From: an uncultured Actinomyces sp.
GTDB taxonomy: Bacteria; Actinomycetota; Actinomycetes; S36-B12
Direction: 5' to 3'
Assembly (NCBI GenBank): GCA_964537955.1
Contig: CAZICY010000005.1
Span: 1,818 to 65,817, forward strand
DNA length: 64,000 bases
Shown here: piece by piece, positions 44,731 to 62,101 of the stretch
Position numbering within the stretch: the first letter of the stretch is position 1
How the letters are laid out: the number at the start of each line of letters is the position of its first letter
The notes under the pieces: generated by a model
Told to the model about the DNA's origin: nothing
Databases searched by the model: none
Seen by the model: only the letters and a program-made list of their open reading frames with translations
Translations under genes and position numbers: made by a program

Positions 44731-45138
44731 CTAGCCGATGGTCGGGTCGAAGGTGAAGATGACGAGCGTCCCGAGGAGGATGATGAAGGCCGAGGAGACG
44801 TAGAGGAGCATCTTGAGCCAGAAGCGGGTCTGGTTGCGCTCCGCGTAGTCATTGATGATCGTGCGCAGTCCGTTGGTGCCGTGCAGCATGGCGAGCCAGA
44901 GCATGGCGAGGTCCCAGACCTGCCAGAAGGGGCTGGCCCACCGGCCTGCTACGAACGCGAAGTTGATGCGCTGCACGCCGCCGTCGAGGATGTTCATGAT
45001 GAACAGGTGGCCCAGGACCAGGAAGACGAGCACGACGCCCGACACGCGCATGAAGAGCCAGGCATAGAGCTCGAAGTTGCTCCGCTGGCGGTTGCGCGCG
45101 CCGGTGGAGAGGGCCATCGAGCGGTCTGCGAGGCTCAT
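44731..45138 (-). CDS. sdhD: Succinate dehydrogenase hydrophobic anchor subunit
   Basis: WLFMRVSG, LGHL, LHGTNGLRTIINDY. Confidence 0.92.
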   Translation of the reverse strand: MSLADRSMALSTGARNRQRSNFELYAWLFMRVSGVVLVFLVLGHLFIMNILDGGVQRINFAFVAGRWASPFWQVWDLAMLWLAMLHGTNGLRTIINDYAERNQTRFWLKMLLYVSSAFIILLGTLVIFTFDPTIG

Positions 45139-45530
45139 GGCGTCGCCCCGAACATCGCCTCGACCGTGTGGCGCATCATGTAGAAGGTGCCGGGGATCAT
45201 CACGACCACCCAGACGCCCACGACGCCCCAGAGCATCTGCTTCTGGTAGCGGGGTCCCCGCGCCCAGAAGTCCACGGCGATGACCCGCAGGCCGTTGAGC
45301 GCGTGGTAGAGCACCGCTCCGACCAGTCCCACCTCGAGGAGGTTGACGATCGGGGTCTTGTACGTCGCGATGACGATGTCGTAGGCCTCAGGCGAGACGC
45401 GGACGAGGGCTGTGTCGACGACGTGCACGTAGAGGAAGAAGAAGACCGCGATGCCCGTGATGCGCTGGGCCACCCACGACCACATGCCCTGGCCGCCCCG
45501 ATAGAGGGTGCCCACGGGCGCGATGGCCAT
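45135..45530 (-). CDS. sdhC: Succinate dehydrogenase cytochrome b subunit
   Basis: GTLYRG..GMWSWVAQRITG, HVVDT, YHALNGLR; AGGAG SD. Confidence 0.92.
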   Translation of the reverse strand: MAIAPVGTLYRGGQGMWSWVAQRITGIAVFFFLYVHVVDTALVRVSPEAYDIVIATYKTPIVNLLEVGLVGAVLYHALNGLRVIAVDFWARGPRYQKQMLWGVVGVWVVVMIPGTFYMMRHTVEAMFGATP

Positions 45531-45667
45531 GGTGACTCCTCTCGCGAGATGCGGTGACGGCACGGCTGCCGCGGTCCTTGCCATCGTAGTGCGGGAAGGG
45601 GTTCCCGGCAGGGCGGGGTGAGCCGGGTCACAGGCCTCCCGGACGGGGGGCGTCCTAGTCTGACCGC

Positions 45668-47242
45668 ATGACGACGGAGTCCGGATTGCCCTTCGCCCCG
45701 GTCTACGGGCCGGCGGACCTGGCGGGGTGGGACCCCGCCGAGGAGTTGGGCGATCCCGGTGCCTTCCCCTACACCCGGGGCGTCTACCCCACGATGTACA
45801 CCGGGCGCCCCTGGACGATGCGCCAGTACGCCGGATTCGGGACCGCGGCGGAGTCCAACGAGCGCTACCGCCAGCTCCTCGCGGCGGGCACGACGGGCCT
45901 GTCGGTGGCCTTCGACCTGCCCACCCAGATGGGCTACGACTCCGACGCACCCATCGCCCGAGGCGAGGTCGGCAAGGTCGGAGTCGCCATCGACACCATC
46001 GACGACATGCGCCTGCTCTTCGACGGCATCCCGCTGGACAAGGTCTCGACGTCGATGACGATCAACTCCCCGGCGGCGATCCTGCTCCTGCTCTACCAGC
46101 TCGTCGCCGAGGAGCAGGGGGTCCCAGGATCGGCGCTCAACGGCACCATCCAGAACGACGTGCTCAAGGAGTACATCGCGCGAGGCACCTATATCTACCC
46201 GCCCGCACAGTCGCTCAGGCTCATCACCGACATCTTCTCCTACTGCCGCGAGGAGATCCCGCGATGGAACACCATCTCCATCTCGGGTTATCACATGGCG
46301 GAGGCCGGGGCCACTCCCGTGCAGGAGATCGCTTTCACCCTCGCCGACGGCATCGAGTACGTCCGGGCTGCTCTCGCGTCCGGCCAGGACATCGATGAGT
46401 TCGCGCCTCGGCTCGCCTTCTTCTTCGTCGCTCGCACCACCCTGCTGGAGGAGATCGCGAAATTCCGAGCTGCCCGGCGCATCTGGGCGCGGATCATGCG
46501 CGACGAGTTCGGGGCGAAGGACCCCAAGTCCTTGATGCTGCGCTTCCACACCCAGACGGCTGGAGTCCAGCTCACGGCCCAGCAGCCCGAGGTCAATCTC
46601 GTCCGCGTCGCGATCCAGGCGCTCGGCGCGGTCCTCGGCGGCACGCAGTCACTGCACACCAATTCCTTTGACGAGGCCATCGCCCTGCCCACGGAGAAGG
46701 CTGCCCGCCTCGCCCTGCGCACGCAGCAGGTCCTCGCCTACGAGTCGGACGTCACGCAGACGGTCGACCCCTTCGCCGGCTCGTACGCCATCGAGTCGCT
46801 CACCGACGAGATGGAGTCGGCGGTCCTGGCGCTCATGGCTCAGGTGGAGGAGCTCGGGGGAGCCGTGGCAGCCATCGAGAAGGGCTTCCAGAAGGCGGAG
46901 ATCGAGAGGTCCGCCTACGCCTTCGCGCAGGAGATCGACGCGGGCGAGCGCGTGGTCGTCGGCGTCAATCGCTTCACGGTGCAGGAGGAGGAGCCCTACG
47001 AGCCGCTGCGCGTGGATCCCACCATCGAGGCGGAGCAGCGTGCTCGGCTCGAGCGTGTCCGCGCCGAGCGTGATCAGGCCGCCGTCGATGCCGCGCTCGA
47101 GCGCGTGCGGTCGGCGGCCGCGGGCACCGACAATCTCCTCTACCCCATGCGCGAGGCCCTGCGGGCGCGAGCGACCGTGGGCGAGGTCAGCGATGCCCTC
47201 CGCGATGTCTGGGGCATCTACACGCCGACGGATGCCTTCTGA
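45668..47242 (+). CDS. Methylmalonyl-CoA mutase large (substrate-binding) subunit lacking B12 domain
   Basis: [46 protein letters not shown] -10 6 nt upstream. Confidence 0.9.
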
Positions 47243-47244
47243 TC

Positions 47245-48282
47245 GTGAGCGCCGAGATCCAGGCCATCCGCTGGCAGGACGATGCGATCGTCCTCATCGA
47301 CCAGACGCGCCTTCCTGCCGAGGAGCTGTACGTCTCCTGCCCCGATGTCGACTCCCTCGTGGATGCGGTGCAGCGGCTCGTCGTACGCGGCGCCCCCGCC
47401 CTCGGTGCTGTCGGTGGATACGGCGTAGCGGTGGCCATGCTCCAGGGGGAGCGCGAGGGCTGGCCGGCCGATCGGCTCGAGGCCGAGGTCGACCGCGTCC
47501 GCGATGCCCGTCCCACGGCCGTCAACCTCGCGTGGGGGGTCGATCGCGTGCGGCCTCTCATGGCCCGGGGAGTCGACGCGGTGCTCGCCGAGGCCCATCG
47601 CATCGTGGCTGAGGACACCGCCGCCAATCGCGCCCTATCGCGGCACGGTGCCGACTGGGTCCTCGCACACTGCGCACGCCGCCCCTTGCGGGTCGTGACG
47701 CACTGCAACACGGGAGCGCTCGCCACGACCGGCTGGGGCACGGCCTTCGGCATCATCCGCGAACTGGCGGAGCGGGGTGAGATCGAGCTCGTCTACGTCG
47801 ATGAGACCCGACCCCTGCTGCAGGGGGCGCGGCTGACGGCCTGGGAGTGCGACCAGCACGGCATCCCCTACGTCGTCCAGGCCGACGGCGCAGCGGCATC
47901 GACGATCCTGCGCGGCCTCGCCGACTTCGCCGTCATCGGCGCCGATCGCATCGCGCGCAACGGCGACACGGCCAACAAGATCGGATCCGTCGGCGTCGCG
48001 CTCGCCTGTGCGGCTGCGGGCATCCCCTTCGTCGTCGCGGCTCCCTCATCGACGGTGGACCTGGCCACCGCCACGGGCGAAGGCATCGAGATCGAGCTGC
48101 GTGCGGGCGATGAGGTCACCGCCTGGTCGGGGGTGAACGCGGCTCCCGCAGGAGCGCAGGGCTTCAATCCGGCATTCGACGTCACCCCCGCGGCGTACAT
48201 CTCCGCGGTGGTGACCGAGGTGGGTGTGGTCGAGCCGGGCCCGGGAGTCGCCGTGGACGCGATCGCGGGCGGGGCATCGTGA
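47245..48282 (+). CDS. mtnA: S-methyl-5-thioribose-1-phosphate isomerase
   Basis: IDQTRLP, VRGAPALG, RPTAVNL, THCNTGALAT, DETRPLLQGARLTAWE, GDTANKIG, NPAFDVTP. Confidence 0.95.
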   Translation: MSAEIQAIRWQDDAIVLIDQTRLPAEELYVSCPDVDSLVDAVQRLVVRGAPALGAVGGYGVAVAMLQGEREGWPADRLEAEVDRVRDARPTAVNLAWGVDRVRPLMARGVDAVLAEAHRIVAEDTAANRALSRHGADWVLAHCARRPLRVVTHCNTGALATTGWGTAFGIIRELAERGEIELVYVDETRPLLQGARLTAWECDQHGIPYVVQADGAAASTILRGLADFAVIGADRIARNGDTANKIGSVGVALACAAAGIPFVVAAPSSTVDLATATGEGIEIELRAGDEVTAWSGVNAAPAGAQGFNPAFDVTPAAYISAVVTEVGVVEPGPGVAVDAIAGGAS

Positions 48283-50252
48283 CCACGCCCCTGGAGCAGC
48301 TCGTCGCGCGATCCAACGAGATCGGCGCGGATCCCTCGCTCGTCGTCTACGGAGGCGGCAACACCTCTGCCAAGGGCATCGTCGTCGACCACCTCGGCCG
48401 CGAACAGCGCGTGATGTGGGTCAAGGGATCCGGTGCCGACATGCGGGGCTCGCACGCCTCCGACTACCCGGCCCTGCGGCTGGACGAGTTGCTCCCGCTG
48501 CTGGACCGCGACCAGATGTCCGACGAGGAGATGACCGACCTCGTCGCACGGGCACTCGTGGACCCCGGCGCGCGCAGACCCTCGATCGAGACGCTGCTCC
48601 ACGCCTTCCTGCCGTACACGCACATCGACCATGTCCACGCGGACGCCATCTGCGCCCTCACCAATCACGCGGAGGGCCCCCGGATCGTGGCGGAGGCCCT
48701 CGGCGAGGGCTTCGCCTACGTCGACTGGATGCGCCCGGGCTTCACGCTGAGCAAGGTGGTCGCCGACCTCGGCGCTCGCGACGGCGTCGTCCTTGCCCAC
48801 CACGGCCTCATCACCTGGGGCGAGTCGAGCGATGAGTGCTACCGGCGCACCGAGGCGGCGGTCGATCAGGCGCGCGCCTATCTCGAGGGTCTGCCGATCC
48901 GGGCAGCGGCTCCCACTGCCGTGCCGGACATGCCCGACGACGAGGTGGAGCGGCTCCTCCTGCGCCTGCGCGGAGCCATGGCGCGGACGGGAAGGCGCGT
49001 CCTGAGGGTCGACCGCCGTCTGCGCGCGGTCGCCGATCACCCCCTGCTCCCCGAGATCGTTGCGGGAGGTGTGAGCAGTGCTGACCACATGCTGCGCATC
49101 AAGCCGCGCTCCGCGGTGTCCACCTCGTCGTACACGGCCACCGAGGATGTCGGTGCCTATGCCGCCGACTACGCGGCGTACGTCGAGCGGAATGGCGATG
49201 CGATGCCCGAGGGCTTCGGGATGCACGACCCCATGCCGCGCGTCGTGCTCGTGCCCGGACTCGGTGCGGTGACGACGGGCGCCACGCTGCGCGACGCCGA
49301 GGTTGCCGCCGACATCGCGGTGCATACCCATGGCGTCGCGGCGACGGTGGCCGAGCGCATCGGGACGCCGCTCGGCCTGGACGAGCGGGAGACCTTCCGT
49401 TTCGACTACTGGCCGATGGAGCTCTACAAGCTGACGCTTCGACCGCCGTCCCCCGACCTCGCCGGATTCATCGCGATCGTCACGGGATCCGCGTCGGGCA
49501 TCGGTCGCGGCATCGCGCTCGAACTCGCGACCCGGGGCGCTTCCGTCGTGCTGGCCGACCTCGACGGTGACGGCCTTGAGGAAACCGCTGAGCGCATGCG
49601 CGAGGCGGGCGTCACGGCCCCCGTGCTCGTGGCCGGCGACCAGTCGGACGAGGCCGTGGTGGACGAGACGGTGCGCGCGGCCGTGCGCACCTTCGGCGGC
49701 CTCGATGGCGCCGTCATCAACGCGGGCATCGGCGTCACGGGCACGCTCGAGGAACTCACGCTCGGGCAGTGGGATGCCGCCATGCGCATCAACCTGGCCA
49801 GTGGCTTCCTCATCACGCGGGCCGCGATGCGAGCGATGCGCGCGCAGGGCTCAGGGGGCTCGCTCGTCTACGTCGCGAGCAAGAACGCCTTCGGCCCGGG
49901 AGCTGGCTTCGGTGCTTACTCGGTGTCGAAGGCAGGCATGGTGCAGCTCATGCGCATCGCTGCGCTGGAGGGCGGTGCCGCGGGCATCCGAGCCAACGCC
50001 ATCAACCCCGATGCGGTCTTCGACGACTCGCGGCTGTGGGACGGCGGGCTGCGCGAGGAGCGGGCGGCGGCCCATGGCATCGCGCCCGAGGAGCTCGAGG
50101 ACTTCTACGCCGCCCGCAACATCCTCAAGCGGCGCGTGACCACGGCTGATGTCGCGCGCACCGCGGCCTTCCTGCTCTCCGACGCATCGTCGAGGACGAC
50201 CGGCGCGGTCATCCCCGTCGACGGCGGTGTCGCGGGCGCGTTCCCTCGCTGA
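48279..50252 (+). CDS. Bifunctional class II aldolase / short-chain dehydrogenase (RhaEW/YuxG-like architecture)
   Basis: GGGNTSAK, PSIETLLH, DHVHAD, HHGLITWG; C-terminal TGSASGIG, NAG, YSVSK, NPDAVF; GTGA overlap with mtnA. Confidence 0.9.
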   Translation: MTTPLEQLVARSNEIGADPSLVVYGGGNTSAKGIVVDHLGREQRVMWVKGSGADMRGSHASDYPALRLDELLPLLDRDQMSDEEMTDLVARALVDPGARRPSIETLLHAFLPYTHIDHVHADAICALTNHAEGPRIVAEALGEGFAYVDWMRPGFTLSKVVADLGARDGVVLAHHGLITWGESSDECYRRTEAAVDQARAYLEGLPIRAAAPTAVPDMPDDEVERLLLRLRGAMARTGRRVLRVDRRLRAVADHPLLPEIVAGGVSSADHMLRIKPRSAVSTSSYTATEDVGAYAADYAAYVERNGDAMPEGFGMHDPMPRVVLVPGLGAVTTGATLRDAEVAADIAVHTHGVAATVAERIGTPLGLDERETFRFDYWPMELYKLTLRPPSPDLAGFIAIVTGSASGIGRGIALELATRGASVVLADLDGDGLEETAERMREAGVTAPVLVAGDQSDEAVVDETVRAAVRTFGGLDGAVINAGIGVTGTLEELTLGQWDAAMRINLASGFLITRAAMRAMRAQGSGGSLVYVASKNAFGPGAGFGAYSVSKAGMVQLMRIAALEGGAAGIRANAINPDAVFDDSRLWDGGLREERAAAHGIAPEELEDFYAARNILKRRVTTADVARTAAFLLSDASSRTTGAVIPVDGGVAGAFPR

Positions 50253-50255
50253 GGG

Positions 50256-50981
50256 TCACGCGAGTCGGATCTCGGTCATCTGCGCGACCTCGGGGTACGT
50301 CGAGTCGTCGATGGCGTGCGGCTCGCCGGGTCGGCGGACCCGCACGACCTGCCACCCGGCTTCGCTGGCCGCATCGAGCTCCGCGACGACGTCGGAGCAG
50401 AAGAGCAGGTCGCTGGGGTCCGCGCCGATCGCCGCGGCGATGGCGCGGTAGGACGATGCCTCTCGCTTGGGCCCGGCATTGGACGTGTCGTAGTGACCGT
50501 CGATCCACCCGGTGAGATCCCCCTCCGGGGAGTGGGCGTACCAGTTGCGCTGGGCGAGCACCGACCCGGACGAGTAGACGGAGATAGGTAGGCCGGCGTC
50601 GTGCCACTGGCGCAGGGCGACGAGCGCGTCGGGGAAAAAGTCCGAGACAAGTGCGCCGCTCGCGAAACCCTCCTCCCATACGAGGCCCTGGAGGTCCTTG
50701 AGAGGAGTGGCCTTGCGGTCCTCCCGGACCCAGCCGCGCAAGGTCGCGACGATCTCGTCGGCGGACGGGTCGCTGAGACCGGCCTCCCGCGCGACCTCAG
50801 CCACGATGCGGTCCGTCTCGGCCTCGCCTGCATGCTGCTCGAGCCAGGCGGGGAAGCGCTCGGAGGCATAGGGAAAGAGGACGTCGTAGACGAAGGCGGA
50901 GGCACTGGTCGTACCCTCGATGTCCACGACCACGTGCTGCACGTCGCTGAACTCGACCGGACCCGCGAGCTCGGAATTCAC
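50256..50981 (-). CDS. mtnC: Enolase-phosphatase E1 (acireductone synthase)
   Basis: DIEGTT, FVYDVLFPYA, DRKATPLKDLQG, YSSGSV, GPKRE, LFCSD. Confidence 0.93.
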   Translation of the reverse strand: MNSELAGPVEFSDVQHVVVDIEGTTSASAFVYDVLFPYASERFPAWLEQHAGEAETDRIVAEVAREAGLSDPSADEIVATLRGWVREDRKATPLKDLQGLVWEEGFASGALVSDFFPDALVALRQWHDAGLPISVYSSGSVLAQRNWYAHSPEGDLTGWIDGHYDTSNAGPKREASSYRAIAAAIGADPSDLLFCSDVVAELDAASEAGWQVVRVRRPGEPHAIDDSTYPEVAQMTEIRLA

Positions 50982-50996
50982 AAGCAGGGAGGCTAC

Positions 50997-51587
50997 ATGT
51001 CCACGGCCGATGACCTGGCTCGCGCGTCTCGCCGGCTCTACGCACTCGGCTGGATGCGGGGTACGTCGGGCAACGTCTCGGTGCGCGACGGCGACGACAT
51101 CCTCGTGACCGCATCGGGCATCGACAAGTCGGCAGTGGAGCCCGAGGACGCCGTCCTCATCGACGCGCGCGGCGCGGCACTGCCCGGTCAGGAGCGCCGC
51201 CCCAGCGCCGAGGCGCCCATCCACGCCGCGGTGATCGCCGAGGCCGGAGCCGGGGCGGTGGTCCACGTGCACTCCTTGGCCGCGGTCGAGGCCGCCGCGC
51301 GCTGGCCCGAGGGCGTGCCGCTCGTCGATGTCGAGCAGCTCAAGGGCATCGGCCGGGGCGCCCACGGCGACGCCGTCGTCGTCCCGGTGGTGGCCAACTC
51401 CCAGGACATGGCCGACCTGTCGGCCCGGCTCCTGGAGGCCCGCGATCCGGGAGTCCCGGGCGTCGTCGTCGCCGAGCACGGGCTCTACGCATGGGGCTCC
51501 TCGCTGGGCGAGGCCATCGACCGTACGGAGAGCTTCGACTGGCTGTTCGACCACGCCCTGCGGCTGGATCGACTCGGCAGGGGCTAG
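50997..51587 (+). CDS. mtnB: Methylthioribulose-1-phosphate dehydratase
   Basis: GWMRGTSGNVS, TASGIDK, PSAEAPIH, HVHS, EQLKG, HGLYAWG; AGGGAGG SD. Confidence 0.9.
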   Translation: MSTADDLARASRRLYALGWMRGTSGNVSVRDGDDILVTASGIDKSAVEPEDAVLIDARGAALPGQERRPSAEAPIHAAVIAEAGAGAVVHVHSLAAVEAAARWPEGVPLVDVEQLKGIGRGAHGDAVVVPVVANSQDMADLSARLLEARDPGVPGVVVAEHGLYAWGSSLGEAIDRTESFDWLFDHALRLDRLGRG

Positions 51588-51621
51588 TGCGCGGCGCGGC
51601 GCGGCGCGGCACAATGCCCGC

Positions 51622-52218
51622 ATGACGATGCTGACCGTGTGGGCCGACGACCGGCCCGAGACGCCGATCCTGCGCACCCGTGACCACTCCGAGATCGCCG
51701 AGGCGCTCACGCCCATCGGGGTCGTCTACGAGCACGTCCCCGTGGGTGATCGCCTCGCCGACACCGCGACCCAGGACGAGGTCCTCGAGGCCCATCGAAC
51801 GCTGGTCGACCGCCTCATCGCGGAGCACGGCTATCGGCTGGTCGACGTCGCCCAGTTGCACCCGGTCGACTCCGACGAGTGGCGCGCGACGGCCGAGGCC
51901 GCTCGCAACAAGTTCCTCAACGAGCACACCCACGACGAAGAGGAGATCCGCTATTTCGTCGCAGGCTCGGGCGTGTTCTACCTCCACGTCGACGGTCGCG
52001 TGCACGCCATGCTGTGCACCCCGGGCGATCTGCTCAGTGTTCCGGCTCTGACCACGCACTGGTTCGACATGGGCACGGCCCCCGACTTCACCGCCATCCG
52101 CTTCTTCCATGACGACGACGGATGGGTCGGCACCTTCACCGGCAGTGATATCTCCACGCACTTCCCCACCTTCGACGAGCTCACTGCAGCGGCTGCGCTG
52201 GCCGACGCCACCGCATGA
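51622..52218 (+). CDS. mtnD: Acireductone dioxygenase
   Basis: KFLNEHTHDEEEIRYFVAGSG, VPALTTHWFDMG, AIRFF. Confidence 0.95.
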   Translation: MTMLTVWADDRPETPILRTRDHSEIAEALTPIGVVYEHVPVGDRLADTATQDEVLEAHRTLVDRLIAEHGYRLVDVAQLHPVDSDEWRATAEAARNKFLNEHTHDEEEIRYFVAGSGVFYLHVDGRVHAMLCTPGDLLSVPALTTHWFDMGTAPDFTAIRFFHDDDGWVGTFTGSDISTHFPTFDELTAAAALADATA

Positions 52219-52616
52219 CCGACGTCGAATGGGACGCCCTCCGGGCAGCAGCGCGGGAGGCTCGCGACCACGCCTACGCGCCCTACAGCCGGCATCCGGT
52301 CGGAGCCGCGGCCCTGACGACCGCCGGGCGCATCGTGACCGGGTGCAACGTCGAGAACGCCTCGCTGGGCGTCACCCTCTGCGCGGAGTGCGGCCTGGTG
52401 AGCGATCTCGTGCGCACGAGCCCGGCCGGCGAGCGCGAGCGCCTCGTCGCCTTCGCGTGCGTCGGCCCCGCCCCCGGCCCGCTCCTGCCCTGCGGTCGCT
52501 GCCGACAGCTCCTCCATGAGCACGGGGGAGCGGCGATCCTCGTCGATCGCGAGGGCGGACCCGTGACGCTGGGGACCTTGATTCCCGACGCCTTCGGTCC
52601 CGAGGCGATTCCGTGA
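52215..52616 (+). CDS. cdd: Cytidine deaminase
   Basis: AYAPYS, GCNVENAS, CAE, PCGRCRQ. Confidence 0.93.
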   Translation: MTDVEWDALRAAAREARDHAYAPYSRHPVGAAALTTAGRIVTGCNVENASLGVTLCAECGLVSDLVRTSPAGERERLVAFACVGPAPGPLLPCGRCRQLLHEHGGAAILVDREGGPVTLGTLIPDAFGPEAIP

Positions 52617-53371
52617 CTGACCCGGGGCGGGGAGCGCTCGGGGTCATCGCCGGCACGGGCTTCTACGCACTCGACGCGCTCAAGGACGCCGCGGACATCG
52701 TCGTCGACACCTCATACGGTGCCGTCCGCATGCGATCGGGCATGCTGCACGACCGCCAGACGTTCTTCGTCTCCCGTCACGGTGTCGACCACTCCGTGCC
52801 CCCGCACATGGTCAACTACCGCGCGATCATCCAGGCACTGGTCGATGTCGGTGTCACGGAGATCCTCGCGGTCAATGTCGTCGGCGGCATCGGCCATGAC
52901 GCCGGCGAGCTCGTCGTCATCGACGACTTCATCGACTTCACCCACCAACGTCCCCTGACGTTCTTCGACGGGTCCACACCCGAGGGCGTGGTGCACGTCG
53001 ACATGGGCCAGCCCTACGACGGCCGGCTTCGTGCCGCATGGCTGCGCGCCGCGGCGGACGCGGGAGTCGACGTCACCCCCTCCGGGGTGTACGGGGCCTT
53101 CGAAGGCCCGCGATTCGAGACGAAGGCGGAGATCCGCATGGCGCGAGCCGCGGGCGTCACGGTCGTGGGCATGACCGGCGTACCCGAGGTGGTCCTCGCC
53201 GCCGAGCGGGGCATCCCCTACGCGAGCCTGTGCCTTGTCGCCAATCCCGCAGCGGGACTGAGCGATGTCCCCATCAAGGTGGAGGACGTCACCGCCGTCG
53301 TCGCCCAGGGTGCGGCGACCGTGACGGGCATCCTCGAGCGGGCCGCCGGCATCCTGGCGGTGCCCTCGTGA
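52613..53371 (+). CDS. MTAP-family purine nucleoside phosphorylase, probably methylthioinosine phosphorylase
   Basis: GVIAGTG, SRHG..HSVPPH.VNYRA, DFIDFT, EGPRFETKAE, VGMT, LVANPAAG (Asn in place of the MTAP D-x-D). Confidence 0.85.
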   Translation: MTDPGRGALGVIAGTGFYALDALKDAADIVVDTSYGAVRMRSGMLHDRQTFFVSRHGVDHSVPPHMVNYRAIIQALVDVGVTEILAVNVVGGIGHDAGELVVIDDFIDFTHQRPLTFFDGSTPEGVVHVDMGQPYDGRLRAAWLRAAADAGVDVTPSGVYGAFEGPRFETKAEIRMARAAGVTVVGMTGVPEVVLAAERGIPYASLCLVANPAAGLSDVPIKVEDVTAVVAQGAATVTGILERAAGILAVPS

Positions 53372-54663
53372 GCGTCGACCTCGTCATCCGCGGGGCGCGC
53401 TACGTGCTCATGAGCGACGCTTCGGGAGGCGTCGTCGAGCGTGCCGACATCGCCATCGATGACGGTCGGATCGTGAGCGTGGGCGAGCCCGTCGCCGAGG
53501 CGGACACCGTCATCGACGGCGAGGGCCTGCTCGTCATGCCCGGGCTCGTCAACCTCCACACCCATCTCGCCATGACTCTCCTGCGGGGCATCGCGGAGGA
53601 GGTGGACCTGCAGGGCTTCCTCGAGCGCGTCTGGGCGGAGGAGGCGAGGATCATGGACTCAGCCGGCGTCTACGCGGGCACGCGACTGGGTGCTCTCGAG
53701 GCGATTCTCGGTGGCACCACGACGGCGCTGGACATGTACTTCCATCCGGCCGATGCCCACCGCGGGGCGGTGGAGGTCGGACTGCGCCACGTCACCGGAC
53801 CCGTCTTCTTCTCCTTCCCCGGCCCGGACCACCTCGAGTGGCATGAGCGGATGGCGCTCGCCCGCGCGTGGCCCCAGGCCCTGGAGTCGCTCGGCGGACC
53901 GCATGTGCCACCGGCGCTCATGCCGCACGCGGCCTTCACCGTCGGTCTGGAGCACCTCGCTGAGATCGCCGACCTTGCTCGCGAGCAGGGGGCTCTCGTG
54001 CATACGCATGCCTCGGAGAACGACCGGGAGAACGACGACACCGTCAAGGCCACCGGCATGCGGCCGGTGCCCACACTGGAGGCATCGGGAGTCCTCGCCC
54101 TCGCGCCTGTCCTGGGACACGGCGTCCGCCTCGACGAGCATGACCGTGAGCGCGTCGCCGCGACCGGGACGGCGGTAGCTCACTGCCCCGGTTCCAACCT
54201 CAAGCTCGCCAGCGGCGCCGCCGACATCGTGGGCTATCGAGACCAGGGCATCCGAGTGGGCATCGGCACCGACGGGTGCTCGTCGAGCAACGACCTCGAC
54301 ATGTTCGCCGCGATGCGCCTGGCGGCCAATCTCGCCCGGCTGGTGCGCGAGGATCCGGCGGCCCTGTCGGCTCGCGACGTCGTGCAGGCCGCCACGATCG
54401 ACGGCGCCCGCGCACTGGGCCTGGGCGAGCGCATCGGCACCGTCGAGGTCGGCAAGGAGGCTGATCTCATCGCGCTGGACCTGCGCGCGCCCCACCTCGT
54501 GCCGGTCCACGATCCCTACACCTCCGTGGTCTTCAGCGCGGGTCGATCCGACGTACGACACGTCCTCGTCGCCGGCGCCCCCGTCGTGCTCGACCGACAG
54601 CCGACCCGTGTCGATGTCGATGACGTCATGGCTGCGGCGCTTCGTGTCGTGGAGGGGACATGA
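53368..54663 (+). CDS. mtaD: Amidohydrolase, MTA/SAH/5'-deoxyadenosine deaminase family
   Basis: PGLVNLHTHLAMTLLRG, GTTTALDMYF, HTHASE, HCPGSNLKLASG, GTDG..NDLDMF. Confidence 0.8.
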   Translation: MSVDLVIRGARYVLMSDASGGVVERADIAIDDGRIVSVGEPVAEADTVIDGEGLLVMPGLVNLHTHLAMTLLRGIAEEVDLQGFLERVWAEEARIMDSAGVYAGTRLGALEAILGGTTTALDMYFHPADAHRGAVEVGLRHVTGPVFFSFPGPDHLEWHERMALARAWPQALESLGGPHVPPALMPHAAFTVGLEHLAEIADLAREQGALVHTHASENDRENDDTVKATGMRPVPTLEASGVLALAPVLGHGVRLDEHDRERVAATGTAVAHCPGSNLKLASGAADIVGYRDQGIRVGIGTDGCSSSNDLDMFAAMRLAANLARLVREDPAALSARDVVQAATIDGARALGLGERIGTVEVGKEADLIALDLRAPHLVPVHDPYTSVVFSAGRSDVRHVLVAGAPVVLDRQPTRVDVDDVMAAALRVVEGT

Positions 54664-55130
54664 GCCAACTCGATGACATGAGCGCCGCCGAGGTCATCTC
54701 CGCGCTGAATCTGGAGTATTTGGAGGGAGAGGGTGTCTGGATCTCCCTGCTGTGGCGCACCGACCACGGCAACGCGATCTACGGCCTGCTCACACCGAAG
54801 GACTTCAGCGCCCTGCACATGCTGGATGAAGACGAGATGTGGGTGCATGTCGCTGGAGCGCCGGTGGAGATGCTCGTCCTGCACTCGGACGGCAGCCACT
54901 CCGATCATGTGCTGGGCACCGATCTCGCCCTGGGCCACGAGCCGGCCGTGCGCGTGCCCGCCCGGGCCTGGCAGGGGTCGCGCACCCAGGGCGAGTGGAG
55001 CCTCGTGGTGTGCTCGCTCGCCCCACCCTTCAGCGGGTTCACGCTGGCCGGCGACGACATCGACCTGCAGGCGTGGCCCTCTGCTGCTGCGCAGGCGCGC
55101 ACGCTCATCCGCAGTGGGATGCCCGCGTGA
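54660..55130 (+). CDS. Cupin_5 / DUF985 family protein
   Basis: AIYGLL..FSALH..DEMW..AG.P, LGTDL, VPARAWQG, WSLVVCSLAPPF. Confidence 0.78.
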   Translation: MSQLDDMSAAEVISALNLEYLEGEGVWISLLWRTDHGNAIYGLLTPKDFSALHMLDEDEMWVHVAGAPVEMLVLHSDGSHSDHVLGTDLALGHEPAVRVPARAWQGSRTQGEWSLVVCSLAPPFSGFTLAGDDIDLQAWPSAAAQARTLIRSGMPA

Positions 55131-55825
55131 GCGGGCGCGTGGCGCTTGTCACCGGAGCGCGCGGGGTGGTGGGTCGTGCCCTGATCGCGCGGCTCACCGG
55201 TGAAGGGTTCGACGTCATCGCGCACAGTCGCGGGGAGATCGGCGAGCCGCCCGCGGGTGCGCTGCTCCTCACAGGCGACCTGTCCGACCCGGCCGAGGCT
55301 CGGCGCGTGCGCGATGCGGTGGACCGCGTCGACCTCCTGGTCAACAACGCCGCGAGCCAGGTGGTGGGGGGCCTCGACACGCTCGCGCCCACCGACTGGA
55401 CGGACATGCTGGGCTCCACCCTGCTCAGCGCCGTGCAGCTGTCGACAGTGCTGCGGCCGGTCATGCCACCCGGCTCGAGCATCGTCAACGTGACCTCGAT
55501 CGAGGCCGGCGCGGCGTTCCCCGGTCACGCGCACTACGCCGCGGCCAAGGCCGCGCTCGAGTCCTTCACGCGGTCGGCTGCCCTGGAGTGGGCCGCTGAC
55601 GGGATCCGCGTCAATGCCGTTGCCCCCGGCCTCATCGACCGTCCCGGCCTGGCGCAGGAATGGCCCGAGGGCGTGGAGTGGTGGGCGCGCACCTGTCCCC
55701 TGGGCAGGACGATCGAGCCGCGCGAGGTGGCCGACGCGGTCGCCCTGCTCGCATCGTCGACCGGGGTGTCCGGGATCGTGCTGCCGGTCGACGGCGGCTG
55801 GAGCGCGAGCGCACGCCTCGCCTGA
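55127..55825 (+). CDS. Short-chain dehydrogenase/reductase
   Basis: ALVTGARGVVG, LVNNA, YAAAK, IRVNAVAPG, VDGG. Confidence 0.9.
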   Translation: MSGRVALVTGARGVVGRALIARLTGEGFDVIAHSRGEIGEPPAGALLLTGDLSDPAEARRVRDAVDRVDLLVNNAASQVVGGLDTLAPTDWTDMLGSTLLSAVQLSTVLRPVMPPGSSIVNVTSIEAGAAFPGHAHYAAAKAALESFTRSAALEWAADGIRVNAVAPGLIDRPGLAQEWPEGVEWWARTCPLGRTIEPREVADAVALLASSTGVSGIVLPVDGGWSASARLA

Positions 55826-56023
55826 CGACAGCAGGACGAATCGCCACTCGTGTCACATGCGTCTCGTCTGCGACGCGCGCGGGTCACGGGAGGGTTACGA
55901 CGACGAGCCACCCTCGGAGTTGCACTCGGTGACGACTAGGGTTCAGGGAACGCTCGATACCCATCGTGAGCGGCGTAGCCCAGCTACGTGCGGATGGGAT
56001 GACCACGACGAAAGGGCATGTGC

Positions 56024-57097
56024 ATGCATCGCAAGTGGGGTTTGGCAGCCGCGGCTGCCGCCGCTGCACTCGTGCTGGCCGCCTGTGGCGGTGGCGGAGG
56101 AAGCAGTGCGTCGTCCAGCAGCAGTAGCAGCGCGGGTGGCGGAGGAGAGGGCGACTGCCCTGGTGCTGATGCGTTCTGCATCGGCCTCGTCACCGACACG
56201 GGCAAGGTGGACGACAAGTCGTTCAACCAGTCCGCATGGGAGGGCGCCCTTGAGGCTGCCCAGGCCTCAGGTGGCTACGCAAAGTACATCGAGACCGTTG
56301 ATCCCAAGGACTACGAGACCAACATCGGCCAGTTCGTGACCGCCGGCTACGACGTCATCGTCACCGTCGGCTTCCTCATGGGCGAGGCGACTGTGGCTGC
56401 GGCCAAGGCCAACACCGGCACGCAGTTCATCGGCGTTGACCAGTTCCAGGCCGAGGTGATCCCCAACCTCACTGGGCTCGTCTTCCCCGAGGACAAGGCC
56501 GGCTACGCCGCGGGCTACCTCGCGGGCCTGATGACCAAGACCAACAAGGTCGGTGCGGTCCTCGGCACCGACACGGTCCCGCCGGTCAAGCTCTTCGGCG
56601 AGGGCTACAAGGCCGGCGCTCTTGCGGCCAACCCGTCGGTCGAGGTGACGCTGGTCTACCACGAGCCGGCCAACGCATTCACCGATCCTGAGTGGGGCGC
56701 AGCGGAGGCCAAGAAGCAGCTTGAGCAGGGCAACGACATCATCTTCGGCGCCGGTGGACTCACCGGCAATGGCGCCCTGATCGAAATCGCCAAGGCTCCC
56801 GGAGCTGGCGAGACGATCTTCTGCATCGGCGTCGACACCGACCAGTTCTTCACCGTGCCGGAGGCGGCCAAGTGCCTGCTCACCTCGGCGGAGAAGAAGC
56901 TGACCCTGGGCACCAAGGACCTCGTCCTGCTGGCCAAGGACGGCAAGGCCCCCGGTGGCAACTACGTCGGCCTCACCGGCCTGGCGCCGTACCACGACAC
57001 CGAGGCTGCGGTTCCCGAGGAGGTCAAGGCCAAGGTGGCGGAGGTCATCGCCGGTCTCGACGCCGGGACGATCGCAACCAACGTGACGCTCGGCTGA
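56024..57097 (+). CDS. BMP-family nucleoside ABC transporter substrate-binding lipoprotein
   Basis: Lipobox LAAC; DDKSFNQSAWEG, VGF, IGVDTDQ, LLTSAEK; GAAAGGG SD. Confidence 0.92.
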   Translation: MHRKWGLAAAAAAAALVLAACGGGGGSSASSSSSSSAGGGGEGDCPGADAFCIGLVTDTGKVDDKSFNQSAWEGALEAAQASGGYAKYIETVDPKDYETNIGQFVTAGYDVIVTVGFLMGEATVAAAKANTGTQFIGVDQFQAEVIPNLTGLVFPEDKAGYAAGYLAGLMTKTNKVGAVLGTDTVPPVKLFGEGYKAGALAANPSVEVTLVYHEPANAFTDPEWGAAEAKKQLEQGNDIIFGAGGLTGNGALIEIAKAPGAGETIFCIGVDTDQFFTVPEAAKCLLTSAEKKLTLGTKDLVLLAKDGKAPGGNYVGLTGLAPYHDTEAAVPEEVKAKVAEVIAGLDAGTIATNVTLG

Positions 57098-57122
57098 TCA
57101 GCCCAGCGCACTGAACGGCCCC

Positions 57123-57157
57123 GGAAGGGGGGTGGCGGATTGCGCCACCCCCCTTCC
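57123..57157 (+). terminator. Intercistronic hairpin after the binding-protein gene (partial terminator or mRNA stabiliser)
   Basis: GGAAGGGGGGTGGCG-gattg-CGCCACCCCCCTTCC followed by CCTTT. Confidence 0.7.
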
Positions 57158-57183
57158 CCTTTATGTGCTTGGATCGACGGGCC

Positions 57184-58299
57184 ATGTCGACGATAGATCC
57201 CGCCCAGACGGACCTCGGGTACACGGATCCGGACCCGCGTCGGTCCGGACCGCTGGACCGCGTGCCGGCCATCGTCATCCCGGTCGTGTCCGTCCTGCTC
57301 GCCTTCGCCATCGGCGGCATCCTCATCTGGCTCCAGGGGGTCAACCCGTTCTTCGCCTACCAGGTGCTCTTCCGCGACGCCCTCGGCTCCGTCGAGGGCC
57401 TGGAGCGCACGATGGAGAAGTCCACCCCCCTGATCCTCACCGGCCTGGCGGTCGTGGTGGGCCTGCGCGCGGGCCTGTTCAACATCGGAGCCCAGGGTCA
57501 GTTGCTCATGGGCGCGGTCGGAGCGGCCTGGGCTGGCTACAACTTCCAGCTCCCGCCGATCGTCCACCTGCCCTTCTGCCTAATCTTCGGCATCCTCTGC
57601 GGCGCGGCCTGGGGCTCCATCGCGGGAGCCCTGCGTGCCTACCGCAGCGTGTCCGAGGTCATCACGACGATCATGCTCAACAGCATCGCGATCGCTCTCG
57701 TGGACTACCTCGCAAGCCGTCCCCTCAAGGAGCCGGATCAGCCCCTGTCACGCACACCTCTCATCGCCGAGTCAGCTGCGTTGCCCTACATCGGGCCGAT
57801 TCCGTCGGGATTCATCCTCGCCCTGCTCGTGGCGGTGTTCTTCGGCTGGTTCCTCGTCCGCACCACCCAGGGCTTCCGCTTCAACACGGTCGGGATGAAC
57901 CCGGGTGCAGCCCGCTACGCCGGTATCTCCGTCAAGGGCACCATCTTGCTGGCCATGGCCGTGAGCGGAGGCCTCGCCGGACTCGGCGGTGCCGTCGAGA
58001 CCCTCGGAATCACCGGGCGGTTCGAGCCGGCGTTCAACATCGGCCTCGGCTTCGACGGCATCACCATCGCCCTCCTTGCGCGCGCCAACCCCCTTGCGAC
58101 GATCCCGGCCGCCCTGCTGGTGGGGACCCTGCGCGCCGGCTCGTCCTCGCTCCAGTTCCAGACCGGCATCGAGCCCGAGGTCGTGAGCGTCATCCTCGCG
58201 CTCACGCTGCTCTTCGTCTCCGCGCCGATCGTGGCCAAGCTGCTCTTCCGCAATCGGTCGATCAAGCAGACCACCGTGACCAAGGGGTGGGGCTCGTGA
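57184..58299 (+). CDS. Nucleoside ABC transporter permease
   Basis: TPLILTGLAV..RAGLFNIGAQGQ, EVITTIMLN, GFDGITIALL. Confidence 0.92.
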   Translation: MSTIDPAQTDLGYTDPDPRRSGPLDRVPAIVIPVVSVLLAFAIGGILIWLQGVNPFFAYQVLFRDALGSVEGLERTMEKSTPLILTGLAVVVGLRAGLFNIGAQGQLLMGAVGAAWAGYNFQLPPIVHLPFCLIFGILCGAAWGSIAGALRAYRSVSEVITTIMLNSIAIALVDYLASRPLKEPDQPLSRTPLIAESAALPYIGPIPSGFILALLVAVFFGWFLVRTTQGFRFNTVGMNPGAARYAGISVKGTILLAMAVSGGLAGLGGAVETLGITGRFEPAFNIGLGFDGITIALLARANPLATIPAALLVGTLRAGSSSLQFQTGIEPEVVSVILALTLLFVSAPIVAKLLFRNRSIKQTTVTKGWGS

Positions 58300-59270
58300 G
58301 CGCCAAGTGGGCCTACGCGCTGGCCATCCTCATCTCGGTGACGATCGTCATCTTCTACGTGATGGATCCCACCAAGACCACCTCGGTCGTCTCCTTCTCC
58401 CTTCGCTACGCCGTGCCCCTGATCCTGGCGGCGATGGTGGGCATCATGTGCGAGCGCTCCGGCGTCATCAACATCGGCATCGAGGGCCAGATGCTCATGA
58501 GCGCCTTCGCGGGATTCTTCGGCGCGGCCCTCACCGGCAGCCTTCTCCTGGGCACGATGATCGGCGTCGGCACCGGCATGATCATGGGCGCGATGCTGGC
58601 GACCGGCGCCGTGACCTGGAAGATGGACCAGATCATCGCGGGCACCATCATCAACATCCTCGCCGCGGGGCTCACGAGCTTCTTCTACGCGCAGGGATAC
58701 ACCCTTCCCGGCATCACCCCGACGCTGCGCATCCCGGTACTGGCGGACATCCCCCTCGTGGGGCCCGTCTTCTTCGATAACGGCCTGTTCACCTATGCCG
58801 CGATCGTGAGTGCGCTGCTGCTATGGGTGCTCCTGTTCAAGACCGTGTGGGGCCTGCGCACCCGGTCGGTCGGCGAGAAGCCCAGCGCATCGGAGACCTC
58901 GGGCATCGGCGTGCAGACGACGCGCTTTTGGAATGTCACGATCGCCGGTGGTCTCGCCGGACTTGCCGGCGCCTACCTCGCCCTGGAGGCGGCCGGGACC
59001 TTCGAGCGCGGCCTCACAGCGGGTCGGGGCTTCACGGCACTGGCCATCATGATCTTCGGCGCGTGGAATCCCATCGGGGCTCTGGCCGCCGCCATCTTCT
59101 TCGGGCTCACCCAGGGCGTCGCGAGCCAATTGCAGGCCGATGCCGTGGTGGATATCCCGCCGCAGTTCGTGAACATGCTGCCCTACATCCTCACGATCGT
59201 GCTGCTGGCGATCGTGTCCGGGCGCATCAAGCCACCAGCCGCCGTTGGCCGACCATATGAGAAGGACTAG
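58296..59270 (+). CDS. Nucleoside ABC transporter permease
   Basis: ERSGVINIGIEG, GLRTRSVGE.P, GRGFTALA, MLPYILT. Confidence 0.92.
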   Translation: MSAKWAYALAILISVTIVIFYVMDPTKTTSVVSFSLRYAVPLILAAMVGIMCERSGVINIGIEGQMLMSAFAGFFGAALTGSLLLGTMIGVGTGMIMGAMLATGAVTWKMDQIIAGTIINILAAGLTSFFYAQGYTLPGITPTLRIPVLADIPLVGPVFFDNGLFTYAAIVSALLLWVLLFKTVWGLRTRSVGEKPSASETSGIGVQTTRFWNVTIAGGLAGLAGAYLALEAAGTFERGLTAGRGFTALAIMIFGAWNPIGALAAAIFFGLTQGVASQLQADAVVDIPPQFVNMLPYILTIVLLAIVSGRIKPPAAVGRPYEKD

Positions 59271-59273
59271 GCC

Positions 59274-60799
<1,526 letters not shown>

Positions 60800-60803
<4 letters not shown>

Positions 60804-62101
60804 CCGGGGCGGAGCCCTTCACCGCGGTCGACCTGATCCGCATCAAGCGCGATGGCGGGGTGCTCGCCGACGCGCAGATCGACTGGCTCATCGACTCCTA
60901 CACCCGTGGACACGTGCAGGACGAGCAGATGTCAGCCATGGCCATGGCGATCTACTTCCAGGGCCTGAGCGAGCCTGAGCTCGTCAGGTGGACCCAGGCC
61001 ATGATCCGCTCCGGCGAGCGCATGGACTTCTCCTCGCTCGCGCGGCCCACGGTCGACAAGCACTCCACCGGCGGGGTGGGCGACAAGATCACCCTGCCTC
61101 TCGTGCCGATCGTCGCGGCATGCGGCGCTGCCGTGCCGCAGCTCTCCGGGCGTGGACTCGGGCACACGGGAGGCACGCTCGACAAGCTCGAGTCCATCCC
61201 CGGTTGGCGGGCCCACCTGTCGAATGCCGAGATGCTCGCGGTGCTTGCCGATGTGGGCGGAGTGATTTGCGCTGCAGGATCGGGTCTGGCTCCTGCGGAT
61301 CGCAAGCTCTACGCCCTGCGCGATGTCACGTCGACCGTCGACATCATCCCGCTCATCGCCTCCTCGATCATGAGCAAGAAGATCGCTGAGGGCACCTCAG
61401 CGCTCGTGCTCGACGTCAAGACGGGCTCCGGGGCATTCATGTCCGGCACCGCTCGCGCGGTCGAGCTGGCGCGCACCATGGTCGCGCTGGGCCGTGATGA
61501 GGACGTGCGCACCCGTGCCCTGGTCACGGCGATGGACGTGCCCCTCGGCGTGGCAGCGGGCAACGCGCTCGAGGTCGCCGAGTCGGTCGAGGTGCTGGCT
61601 GGCGGAGGCCCCGCGGACGTTGTCGAGCTCACGCTGCTCCTGGCCGGGCACATGCTCGAGCTCGTCGGCATCGACGCCGACCCGGCCGAAGCCATCGCCA
61701 GCGGGCGCGCGATGGACCACTGGCGCCGCATGATCCGGGCCCAGGGCGGAGATCCGGATGCCCCCCTGCCCCGGGCACCGATCGTCGAGACGCTCACCGC
61801 CGACCGGGACGGGGTCGTCACGCGCTGCGATGCCCTCGCGATCGGCCGGGCCGCGTGGCGGCTCGGTGCGGGCCGGGCAGCCAAGGACGACCCGGTGTCG
61901 GCGTCCGCCGGCATCGAGGTCCTCGCCAAGCCCGGCGACCAGGTCCGGGCCGGAGACCCGCTCCTGCGACTCCACGCGGAGGACGCCGCACGCCTCGACG
62001 CCGCGCTGCCCCTGCTCGCGGGACCCGAGCCCGCGGTGGTCGTCTCGCCGCCGGGGACCGGGTACTCACGCCTGCCCCTCGTGGTCGACGTCATCGACTA
62101 G
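60800..62101 (+). CDS. deoA: Thymidine/pyrimidine-nucleoside phosphorylase
   Basis: DKHSTGGVGDK, SGRGLGHTGGTLDKLESIPG, LIASSIMSKK, LGAGR. Confidence 0.96.

Follow-up and report, generated by a model that had tools for sequence, protein, structure and literature searches.

A 64,000-nucleotide stretch of contig CAZICY010000005.1 from an uncultured Actinomyces sp. (assembly GCA_964537955.1), called the window below, encodes a 657-amino-acid (aa) fusion of a class II aldolase-like domain, a middle domain and a short-chain dehydrogenase/reductase (SDR) domain (48279–50252, plus strand) directly behind mtnA, the gene of methylthioribose/5-deoxyribose-1-phosphate isomerase (47245–48282, plus strand). 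Comparative genomics suggests that this fusion is a new form of the dihydroxyacetone phosphate (DHAP) shunt, in which it likely occupies the genetic slot of the stand-alone aldolases Ald2 and DrdA and does their job. The predicted net reaction, whichever the order of steps, is 5-deoxyribulose-1-phosphate plus NAD+ to DHAP plus acetate, to which we give about an even chance. A preliminary description of this DNA had spoken of a single-polypeptide DHAP shunt. The DHAP-shunt slot beside mtnA agrees with that name, but it was overstated, as the pathway continues to depend on MtnA and on a phosphorylase or kinase.

What speaks most strongly for the fusion filling the role of Ald2/DrdA is its either-or occurrence with a FucA/Ald2-like aldolase among 151 genomes of the order, which were searched for the RhaEW model TIGR02632 at E 1e-80. 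mtnA was found in 23 of these genomes, 19 of which have the fusion, and the fusion occurs in 20 genomes, 19 with mtnA. The four genomes with mtnA and no fusion (G082, G143, G079 and G087) are the only ones with a FucA-like aldolase scoring 148–158 bits against TIGR01086; the next best score among the 29 matching genomes is 92.6 bits, and the source genome gave no TIGR01086 match at E 1e-12. The gene order in G082 and G143 is mtnA, aldolase, S-methyl-5′-thioinosine phosphorylase (MTIP), deaminase, and the aldolase overlaps the mtnA stop codon as the fusion does. In G079 and G087 the aldolase is located away from mtnA. PDB searches with the G082/G143 aldolase gave E. coli FucA as the top matches and, in addition, a match to DrdA (6BTD). 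G140, which is congeneric with G082 and G143, carries the fusion. Fisher tests gave p values of 3e-19 and 1e-4, which are overstated since the genomes are kin.

The known DHAP shunt comprises MtnP or MtnK/DrdK, MtnA/DrdI and Ald2/DrdA (PMC6079011, PMC10986504). The upstream enzymes, the slot after mtnA, the predicted substrate and DHAP as a product are common to that pathway and the one proposed here. Ald2 and DrdA, however, are stand-alone FucA-like proteins of ~215 aa that release a free aldehyde, whereas the aldolase domain of the 657-aa fusion shares ~17–22% identity with them and is joined to a built-in dehydrogenase. Moreover, entry at this locus is by a deaminase and MTIP, and the fusion co-occurs with MtnB or a RuBisCO-like protein (RLP).

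The coupling to mtnA is conserved. MtnA scored 387 against TIGR00512 (cut-off 279) and is encoded by the only mtnA of the genome. The GTG start of the fusion overlaps the TGA stop of mtnA, and the resulting 4-nt GTGA overlap (48279–48282) is as previously described. Comparison of the best 80 of 89 related loci, many of them kin and many short, included 69 informative loci that extend 400 nt or more upstream; mtnA was directly upstream of the fusion in 68 of them. In 55 of the 68 a start codon occurs at the same 4-nt overlap, a count favoured by the script, which chose the in-frame start nearest to −4. At the thresholds used, rhaI, rhaK and rhaM were found in none of the 80 fusion loci. In contrast, rhaI or rhaK lay beside 29 of 30 RhaEW-type comparison loci (flanks of 1.5 kb) and mtnA beside none. 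The mtnA-fusion pair is present in metagenome-assembled genomes (MAGs) of Nanopelagicales, Microbacteriaceae, Acidimicrobiia and Chloroflexota. The MAGs that hold close relatives of the fusion mostly bear the titles Nanopelagicales or Actinomycetota.

Pfam placed Aldolase_II at aa 12–202 and adh_short_C2 at aa 403–651 of the fusion. An AlphaFold model built on a 25-sequence alignment (pLDDT 87, pTM 0.87) displayed three parts: a metal (Zn/Mn-type) class II aldolase-fold domain (aa 1–203; 48279–48887), a confidently modelled alpha/beta domain (aa about 215–390; 48921–49448) and a classical SDR domain (aa 391–657; 49449–50252). The single-sequence fold of aa 1–391 was of low confidence (pLDDT 35.7). 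Residues 1–203 of the model superposed on 3M4R with a Z score of 31 and a root mean square deviation of 1.6 Å over 201 residues (38% identity). This class II aldolase domain from Thermoplasma acidophilum is the closest solved structure; it belongs to an uncharacterised protein of which only the N-terminal domain is solved. Residues 391–650 superposed on classical SDRs. No PDB sequence match was obtained for the middle domain, and hhalign detected no repeat of the aldolase domain in it (probability 0.2); its invariant residues are D269-H270, Y377 and E381.

The aldolase domain contains the motifs D117-H118-x-H120 and H174-H175-G176. Alignment to E. coli FucA identified H118, H120 and H175 as metal ligands. 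E104 aligns with the catalytic Glu, so the Asp of the DHVH motif is not a ligand. The intact metal site deduced earlier from DHVH and HHG thus held for H118, H120 and H175 and failed for this Asp. A catalytic role of the Glu is known from DrdA. Glu versus Asp at position 104 was rejected as diagnostic, as a Deinococcus RhaEW has Glu. In the SDR domain, S534 and a TGxxxGxG motif (402–409) accompany the catalytic Y547-x3-K551 already recognized in the preliminary description. By the usual SDR rule, D427 presumably confers a preference for NAD. N28, E104, H118, H120 and H175 are kept in all 80 full-length clade members and S534, Y547 and K551 in 79 of the 80. Of 86 family members, 85 retain the pocket residue K535, all 86 retain R595, and 85 retain R613.

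The fusion shares its division into three parts, its metal ligands, its SDR triad and K535/R595/R613 with RhaEW/YuxG (TIGR02632; 36–40% identity overall, 37–40% to rha-linked RhaEW), and the predicted net chemistry agrees as well, ketose-1-phosphate plus NAD+ to DHAP plus an acid. The Joint Genome Institute annotation names the fusion rhamnulose-1-phosphate aldolase/alcohol dehydrogenase. Hence the protein might be a RhaEW-like enzyme for rhamnulose-1-phosphate, fuculose-1-phosphate or another imported deoxy sugar phosphate, with a regulatory or historical reason for the mtnA adjacency. A sugar ABC transporter near the fusion in 15 of the 80 loci and a FucU/RbsD mutarotase in 8 would fit this, but published drd clusters also contain transporters and a fucose-mutarotase homologue. 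Several results make the rhamnose-type explanation very unlikely. The fusion scored 536.9 against TIGR02632 (cut-off 567.75) and fell under the cut-off of all eleven PRK08324/TIGR02632 models. As described before, the window holds no rhamnose isomerase, kinase or mutarotase gene, and no rha genes were detected elsewhere: rhaA and rhaM were not found in the genome, and rhaI gave only weak matches (62.5 and 31.7 bits; cut-off 531). Such genome-level misses mean not found, not proof of absence, since the MAG is 86% complete. Three of the four full FGGY kinases in the genome matched best as GlpK, GlpK-like and XylB, and the fourth had no match at E 1e-20. rhaI was also found in none of 19 other fusion genomes. 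Finally, the alternation with the FucA-like aldolase follows mtnA, not sugar genes. TIGR03328 (MtnB) was not among the best 25 families of the fusion, and MtnB and the fusion carry the only two class II aldolase domains of the genome.

The TIGR02632 matches in the order (26 of 151 genomes) fell into two groups. Eight genomes scored 961–1029 bits (RhaEW-type), while 20 carry the mtnA-type fusion, 17 full-length at 508–562 bits and three partial. G062 and G122 contain both types, so that the fusion can co-exist with a RhaEW-type paralogue (35% identical). Because rhaI was above the cut-off in only three of the eight high-scoring genomes, some of these may serve a substrate other than rhamnose. 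Five high-scoring copies in genomes in which rhaI was not found (L088, L090 and L092–L094 in G023, G094, G122, G048 and G062) are flanked by a flavin mononucleotide (FMN)-dependent alpha-hydroxy-acid dehydrogenase gene and three of them also by a rhamnulokinase-like gene. In two other genomes (L193, L194) a FucA-like stand-alone aldolase immediately follows RhaEW and rhaI.

Phylogenetic trees separated the mtnA-linked from the rha-linked fusions, a question raised in the preliminary description. The mtnA type formed its own branch in FastTree analyses of 51 rows (SH support 85) and 86 rows (SH support 100), a clade partly by construction, since its members were gathered by similarity to the query. 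IQ-TREE placed both types on separate branches (100/100 and 100/99) in 30 chosen rows. The informative part of the tree is that gene context tracks clade. Of 401 genomes sampled evenly from the phylum, 48 matched TIGR02632, 41 above the cut-off. The mtnA-type clade is patchy, as no further member was among the loci fetched from this sample.

The surroundings of the fusion point to its substrate. Three kinds occur among the 80 loci: mtnBCD in 20, RLP with a split transketolase in 35, and MtnK in 19, with a sugar ABC transporter in 15. MTIP is encoded in 20. mtnB and RLP were never together in one locus. Likewise, MtnB was present in four of the 20 fusion genomes and an RLP orthologue in 15, both in none and neither only in the fragmented G098; the four stand-alone-aldolase genomes have no MtnB and no RLP. 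RLP and the split transketolase are a candidate for an undescribed methylthioribulose-1-phosphate route, possibly with release of methanethiol. The RLPs (for example in L015, L016, L021–L023, L026, L028 and L201:3310–8737) scored below the MtnW cut-offs. Ald2 and DrdA take both MtnA products (PMC10986504, PMC6079011), and the stand-alone aldolase of the order appears to cover both as well. Because 19 of the 20 fusion genomes keep MtnB or RLP, a sulfur-saving route, 5-deoxyribulose-1-phosphate is the likelier substrate of the fusion. Of the two substrates initially considered, it is thus the better candidate for the main one, and methylthioribulose-1-phosphate the weaker.

In the pathway that we propose, 5′-deoxyadenosine from radical SAM (S-adenosylmethionine) enzymes and 5′-methylthioadenosine (MTA) would be deaminated and phosphorolysed by the deaminase and MTIP, and MtnA would isomerise both resulting sugar-1-phosphates. 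The methylthio product would mainly enter MtnB-C-D, or RLP and the split transketolase in relatives, and its sulfur would be saved. The sulfur-free 5-deoxyribulose-1-phosphate would pass to the fusion, where salvage of 5′-deoxyadenosine would be finished. Eight radical-SAM domain matches were obtained in the genome. In Methanocaldococcus jannaschii, a deaminase, MTIP and MtnA process 5′-deoxyadenosine, as reviewed in PMC6302742.

Alternatively, the fusion could be a true aldolase and aldehyde oxidoreductase that uses mainly methylthioribulose-1-phosphate, or both substrates equally, and yields (methylthio)acetate or the alcohol in addition to DHAP. It would then serve as a branch that recovers carbon alongside MtnB/RLP. 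The broad specificity of the known DHAP-shunt aldolases, MtnK beside the fusion in 19 loci, the full set of class II aldolase residues and the two aerobic MTA routes reported for Rhodopseudomonas palustris-type organisms (PMC5893883) are consistent with such a branch. The separate route retained in nearly all fusion genomes, together with the lack of MtnB and RLP in the four Ald2-type genomes, argues against it, and oxidation of the methylthio aldehyde would presumably strand the sulfur. Overall we consider it unlikely. An alcohol product fits poorly with RhaEW of Chloroflexus aurantiacus, which showed no activity with NADH (PMC3870299). Of the two products envisaged initially, acid or alcohol, the acid is therefore the likelier.

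Returning to 5-deoxyribulose-1-phosphate as the main substrate, several observations weigh against this function or against the mtnA linkage behind it. Kinship among the genomes inflates all counts, and the four aldolase genomes span only two genera, which amounts to about two independent swaps. G098 contains the fusion in a fragmented genome in which mtnA was not found, and L055 is the sole informative locus without mtnA upstream. Two Aquiluna MAGs (L069, L073) carry an extra stand-alone class II aldolase upstream of mtnA; their cluster also holds a DeoR/SorC regulator, the fusion, RLP and MtnK and is an exception to the either-or pattern. The best NCBIfam match of two of three stand-alone replacements was a haloarchaeal ribulose-1-phosphate aldolase, all below cut-off. 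Furthermore, MtnB-type dehydratases (DEP1) can cleave 5-deoxyribulose-1-phosphate, which makes a dedicated enzyme dispensable in principle. Rhamnulose-1-phosphate and the ribulose-type substrates differ at C4, so a change of specificity is required for the C4-epimeric, ribulose-type substrate predicted here, and the clade-diagnostic columns contained no readable signature of it. The DrdA series has 3R,4R stereochemistry. The RhaD series is 3R,4S.

We slightly favour oxidation of C4 before cleavage over an aldol-first sequence. The SDR domain would oxidise the C4 hydroxyl of 5-deoxyribulose-1-phosphate to 3-hydroxy-2,4-pentanedione-5-phosphate. By a retro-aldol/retro-Claisen step, the metal domain would then break the C3–C4 bond of the ketone, hydrated at C4, through the metal-enediolate chemistry familiar from aldolases, giving acetate and DHAP and no free acetaldehyde. 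Oxidation first would put the needed change of C4 specificity into the SDR domain. In coupled assays from rhamnose, RhaEW of C. aurantiacus formed lactate and DHAP with NAD+ and neither without it (PMC3870299); NADH gave no activity, and the section on these assays contains none with free lactaldehyde. The lack of DHAP favours oxidation first because a free-standing aldolase domain should yield some DHAP without NAD+. The aldol cleavage followed by aldehyde oxidation that the preliminary description took as established is thus not established even for RhaEW, and oxidation first fits at least as well. None of the 14 other SDRs of the genome has a Lys directly after the catalytic Ser; E. coli sorbitol-6-phosphate dehydrogenase (SrlD) has one. 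Together with the basic SDR pocket K535/R595/R613, this may point to a phosphate-bearing substrate.

A further link is provided by LsrF. Its substrate named in NCBIfam, 3-hydroxy-5-phosphonooxypentane-2,4-dione, is C4-oxidised 5-deoxyribulose-1-phosphate, and its thiolase products are DHAP and acetyl-CoA (PMC7828210, PMC8016206). The proposed cleavage thus resembles the LsrF route of autoinducer-2 (AI-2) catabolism (PRK08227), but it would be hydrolytic, use a class II aldolase fold and give acetate instead of acetyl-CoA. An LsrF-family thiolase gene lies beside the fusion in five of the 80 loci, and LsrF-family genes occur near three sister-lineage fusions (G299, G180 and Shinella sp. H4-D48), in G299 in the order mtnK, mtnA, ABC transporter, GntR regulator, fusion, lsrF. 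In L065 (7580–9063) a ribulose-phosphate 3-epimerase-like gene adjoins lsrF beside the fusion cluster. It is reminiscent of the epimerase LsrE of the Salmonella lsr operon. As no LsrF was found in the source genome (best 96.7 bits; cut-off 297), the metal domain would have to do the cleavage here.

Other data argue against oxidation first. The LsrF-family gene is absent near 75 of the 80 fusions, and none of 24 genomes of the order, the source genome among them, gave LsrF above the cut-off, a search with no true-LsrF control genome, although the L077 and L197 proteins pass. The aldolase residues are intact in the LsrF-linked fusion copies. Binding of the carboxylate product, or a place at a domain interface, is another conceivable role of the basic residues. 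The idea of a close kinship between the SDR domain and SrlD found no support, since the 60 best PDB matches of the SDR profile do not include SrlD. Moreover, in the gas chromatography-mass spectrometry data of PMC3870299, rhamnose (9.28/9.39 min) elutes almost together with the DHAP peaks (9.27/9.37 min), which weakens the control without NAD+.

A third lineage (PRK08324.1-6 and.2-4; lineage B) also sits with salvage genes. Plasmid pRPC1 of Rhizobium sp. BG4 (NZ_CP044126.1) carries RLP, split transketolase, mtnA, mtnK, ABC transporter, fusion and DeoR regulator, and this strain provides a cultured test organism for the sister lineage. L116 was initially regarded as rha-type; this was rejected in favour of lineage B, since its wider context is mtnK-mtnA-transketolase-RLP without rha matches. 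Sister fusions on plasmids of Rhizobium leguminosarum (L202) and Sinorhizobium meliloti (L204) and in Shinella (L203) lie in polyol-type clusters with GlpD-like dehydrogenases and ABC transporters, in Shinella additionally with an FGGY kinase and lsrF. The annotated stretches of these three loci showed neither rha nor mtn genes. PMC3870299 states that RhaEW orthologues always lie in rha loci. This statement does not extend to the mtnA-type and sister branches. Tentatively, the whole RhaEW family can be pictured as a ketose-1-phosphate C4-dehydrogenase joined to a metal-dependent beta-diketone hydrolase, without aldehyde release. The mtnA branch would then be an oxidative DHAP shunt via the AI-2 catabolite (with LsrF leading to acetyl-CoA where lsrF is present), and rhamnose use one specialisation in a family of at least three lineages, two of which would serve salvage of SAM by-products. 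We regard this joint picture as a possibility, though a doubtful one.

The genes downstream of the fusion are as follows (all on the plus strand except mtnC). Convergent with the fusion follows mtnC for the enolase-phosphatase (50256–50981, minus strand, start uncertain; TIGR01691 222.8, cut-off 128.1). A separate bona fide mtnB, as noted previously, encodes methylthioribulose-1-phosphate dehydratase (50997–51587; TIGR03328 159.5, cut-off 137.05), and mtnD encodes acireductone dioxygenase (51622–52218; Pfam ARD, E 4e-26). They are followed by the cytidine deaminase gene cdd (52215–52616; PRK05578 154.5, cut-off 74) and, 2.4 kb downstream of the fusion, by the MTIP gene (52613–53371; PRK09136 241.6, cut-off 223), whose product scores below the MTA phosphorylase cut-off. 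An amidohydrolase (53368–54663) is likely an MTA/5′-deoxyadenosine deaminase; its top models, TRZ/ATZ and 5′-deoxyadenosine deaminase, were all below cut-off. In relatives, too, this gene comes after MTIP. Next come a DUF985 cupin (54660–55130; PF06172) and a stand-alone SDR without the Ser-Lys motif of the fusion (55127–55825). Most mtnB-type loci combine these two genes with those of MTIP and the deaminase. Profile and Pfam matches identified a BMP-type nucleoside ABC transporter with a thymidine/pyrimidine phosphorylase (56018–62101), which provide context only.

Upstream, a methylmalonyl-CoA mutase N-terminal subunit gene (45668–47242) stops 2 nt before mtnA, as in close relatives, and the mtnA-fusion pair may therefore be co-transcribed with it. 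In other loci a divergent GntR regulator replaces the mutase. A sigma-70 promoter/terminator scan of 45000–56100 gave no matches and is uninformative at the GC content of this DNA. One freshwater metatranscriptome contains 0.35 of the sampled words, which was not used as evidence of expression. An ORF of ~380 aa without Pfam/NCBIfam match lies between fusion and mtnC in L001, L007, L008, L013, L040, L042 and L046 and not in the window. Second copies of mcm (93%), deaminase (70%), ABC transporter, cdd and deoA (91–95%) and of the C-terminal part of the fusion with mtnC (94%, 83%) are found on contigs C59 (8.6 kb), C158 and C162 of this genome, which likely derive from a co-binned related population. 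On C59 mcm is directly followed by the deaminase gene, without mtnA, fusion, mtnCBD and MTIP, which suggests that the mtn cassette was either inserted or lost here; nucleoside genes are present. Elsewhere, a split transketolase, a xylose-isomerase-like gene and a GlpK-like FGGY kinase lie in a row on C21 (25682–29770; L082). Judged by its gene families, this cluster resembles one for D-apiose catabolism.

The nucleoside transporter, cdd and thymidine phosphorylase in the locus raise the alternative of general nucleoside-ribose catabolism, in which MtnA would convert ribose-1-phosphate supplied by the adjacent phosphorylases to ribulose-1-phosphate and the fusion would convert this to DHAP and glycolate. 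A phosphopentomutase-type gene was not found in this MAG, which fits, but relatives hold additional PGM-family genes (540–615 aa) that might supply the missing mutase. Further points in favour are the ribulose-1-phosphate aldolase matches of the stand-alone replacements and a glyoxylate carboligase cluster after the sister-lineage fusion of Rhizobium sp. BG4. An FMN alpha-hydroxy-acid dehydrogenase near nine of the 80 fusions would suit glycolate, and the RhaEW product is likewise an alpha-hydroxy acid; this neighbour was dropped as support for glycolate, since it flanks RhaEW-type genes too. The nucleoside genes of C59 stand without the mtnA-fusion pair, and most fusion loci lack nucleoside genes. 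Moreover, the kinase partner is MtnK, and one kinase of this kind, DrdK, is inactive on ribose. Taken together, we judge ribose catabolism quite unlikely.

Our literature search found no paper that links a RhaEW-type fusion to mtnA or proposes oxidation first, with most subscription papers and supplements outside its reach; mtnA-linked fusions may appear in the supplementary data of PMC3870299, PMC6079011 or North 2020. 5′-Deoxyadenosine is a toxic by-product of radical SAM enzymes. If the proposed function is true, a widespread mis-annotated family in aquatic actinobacteria and some Chloroflexota would move from rhamnose catabolism to 5′-deoxyadenosine disposal. It would fill a gap where surveys of the DHAP shunt seek FucA-like aldolases alone, and false predictions of rhamnose use would drop out of metabolic models of these lineages. 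If oxidation precedes cleavage, the mechanism of RhaEW would have to be revised, and salvage of SAM waste would be tied to the chemistry of AI-2 breakdown.

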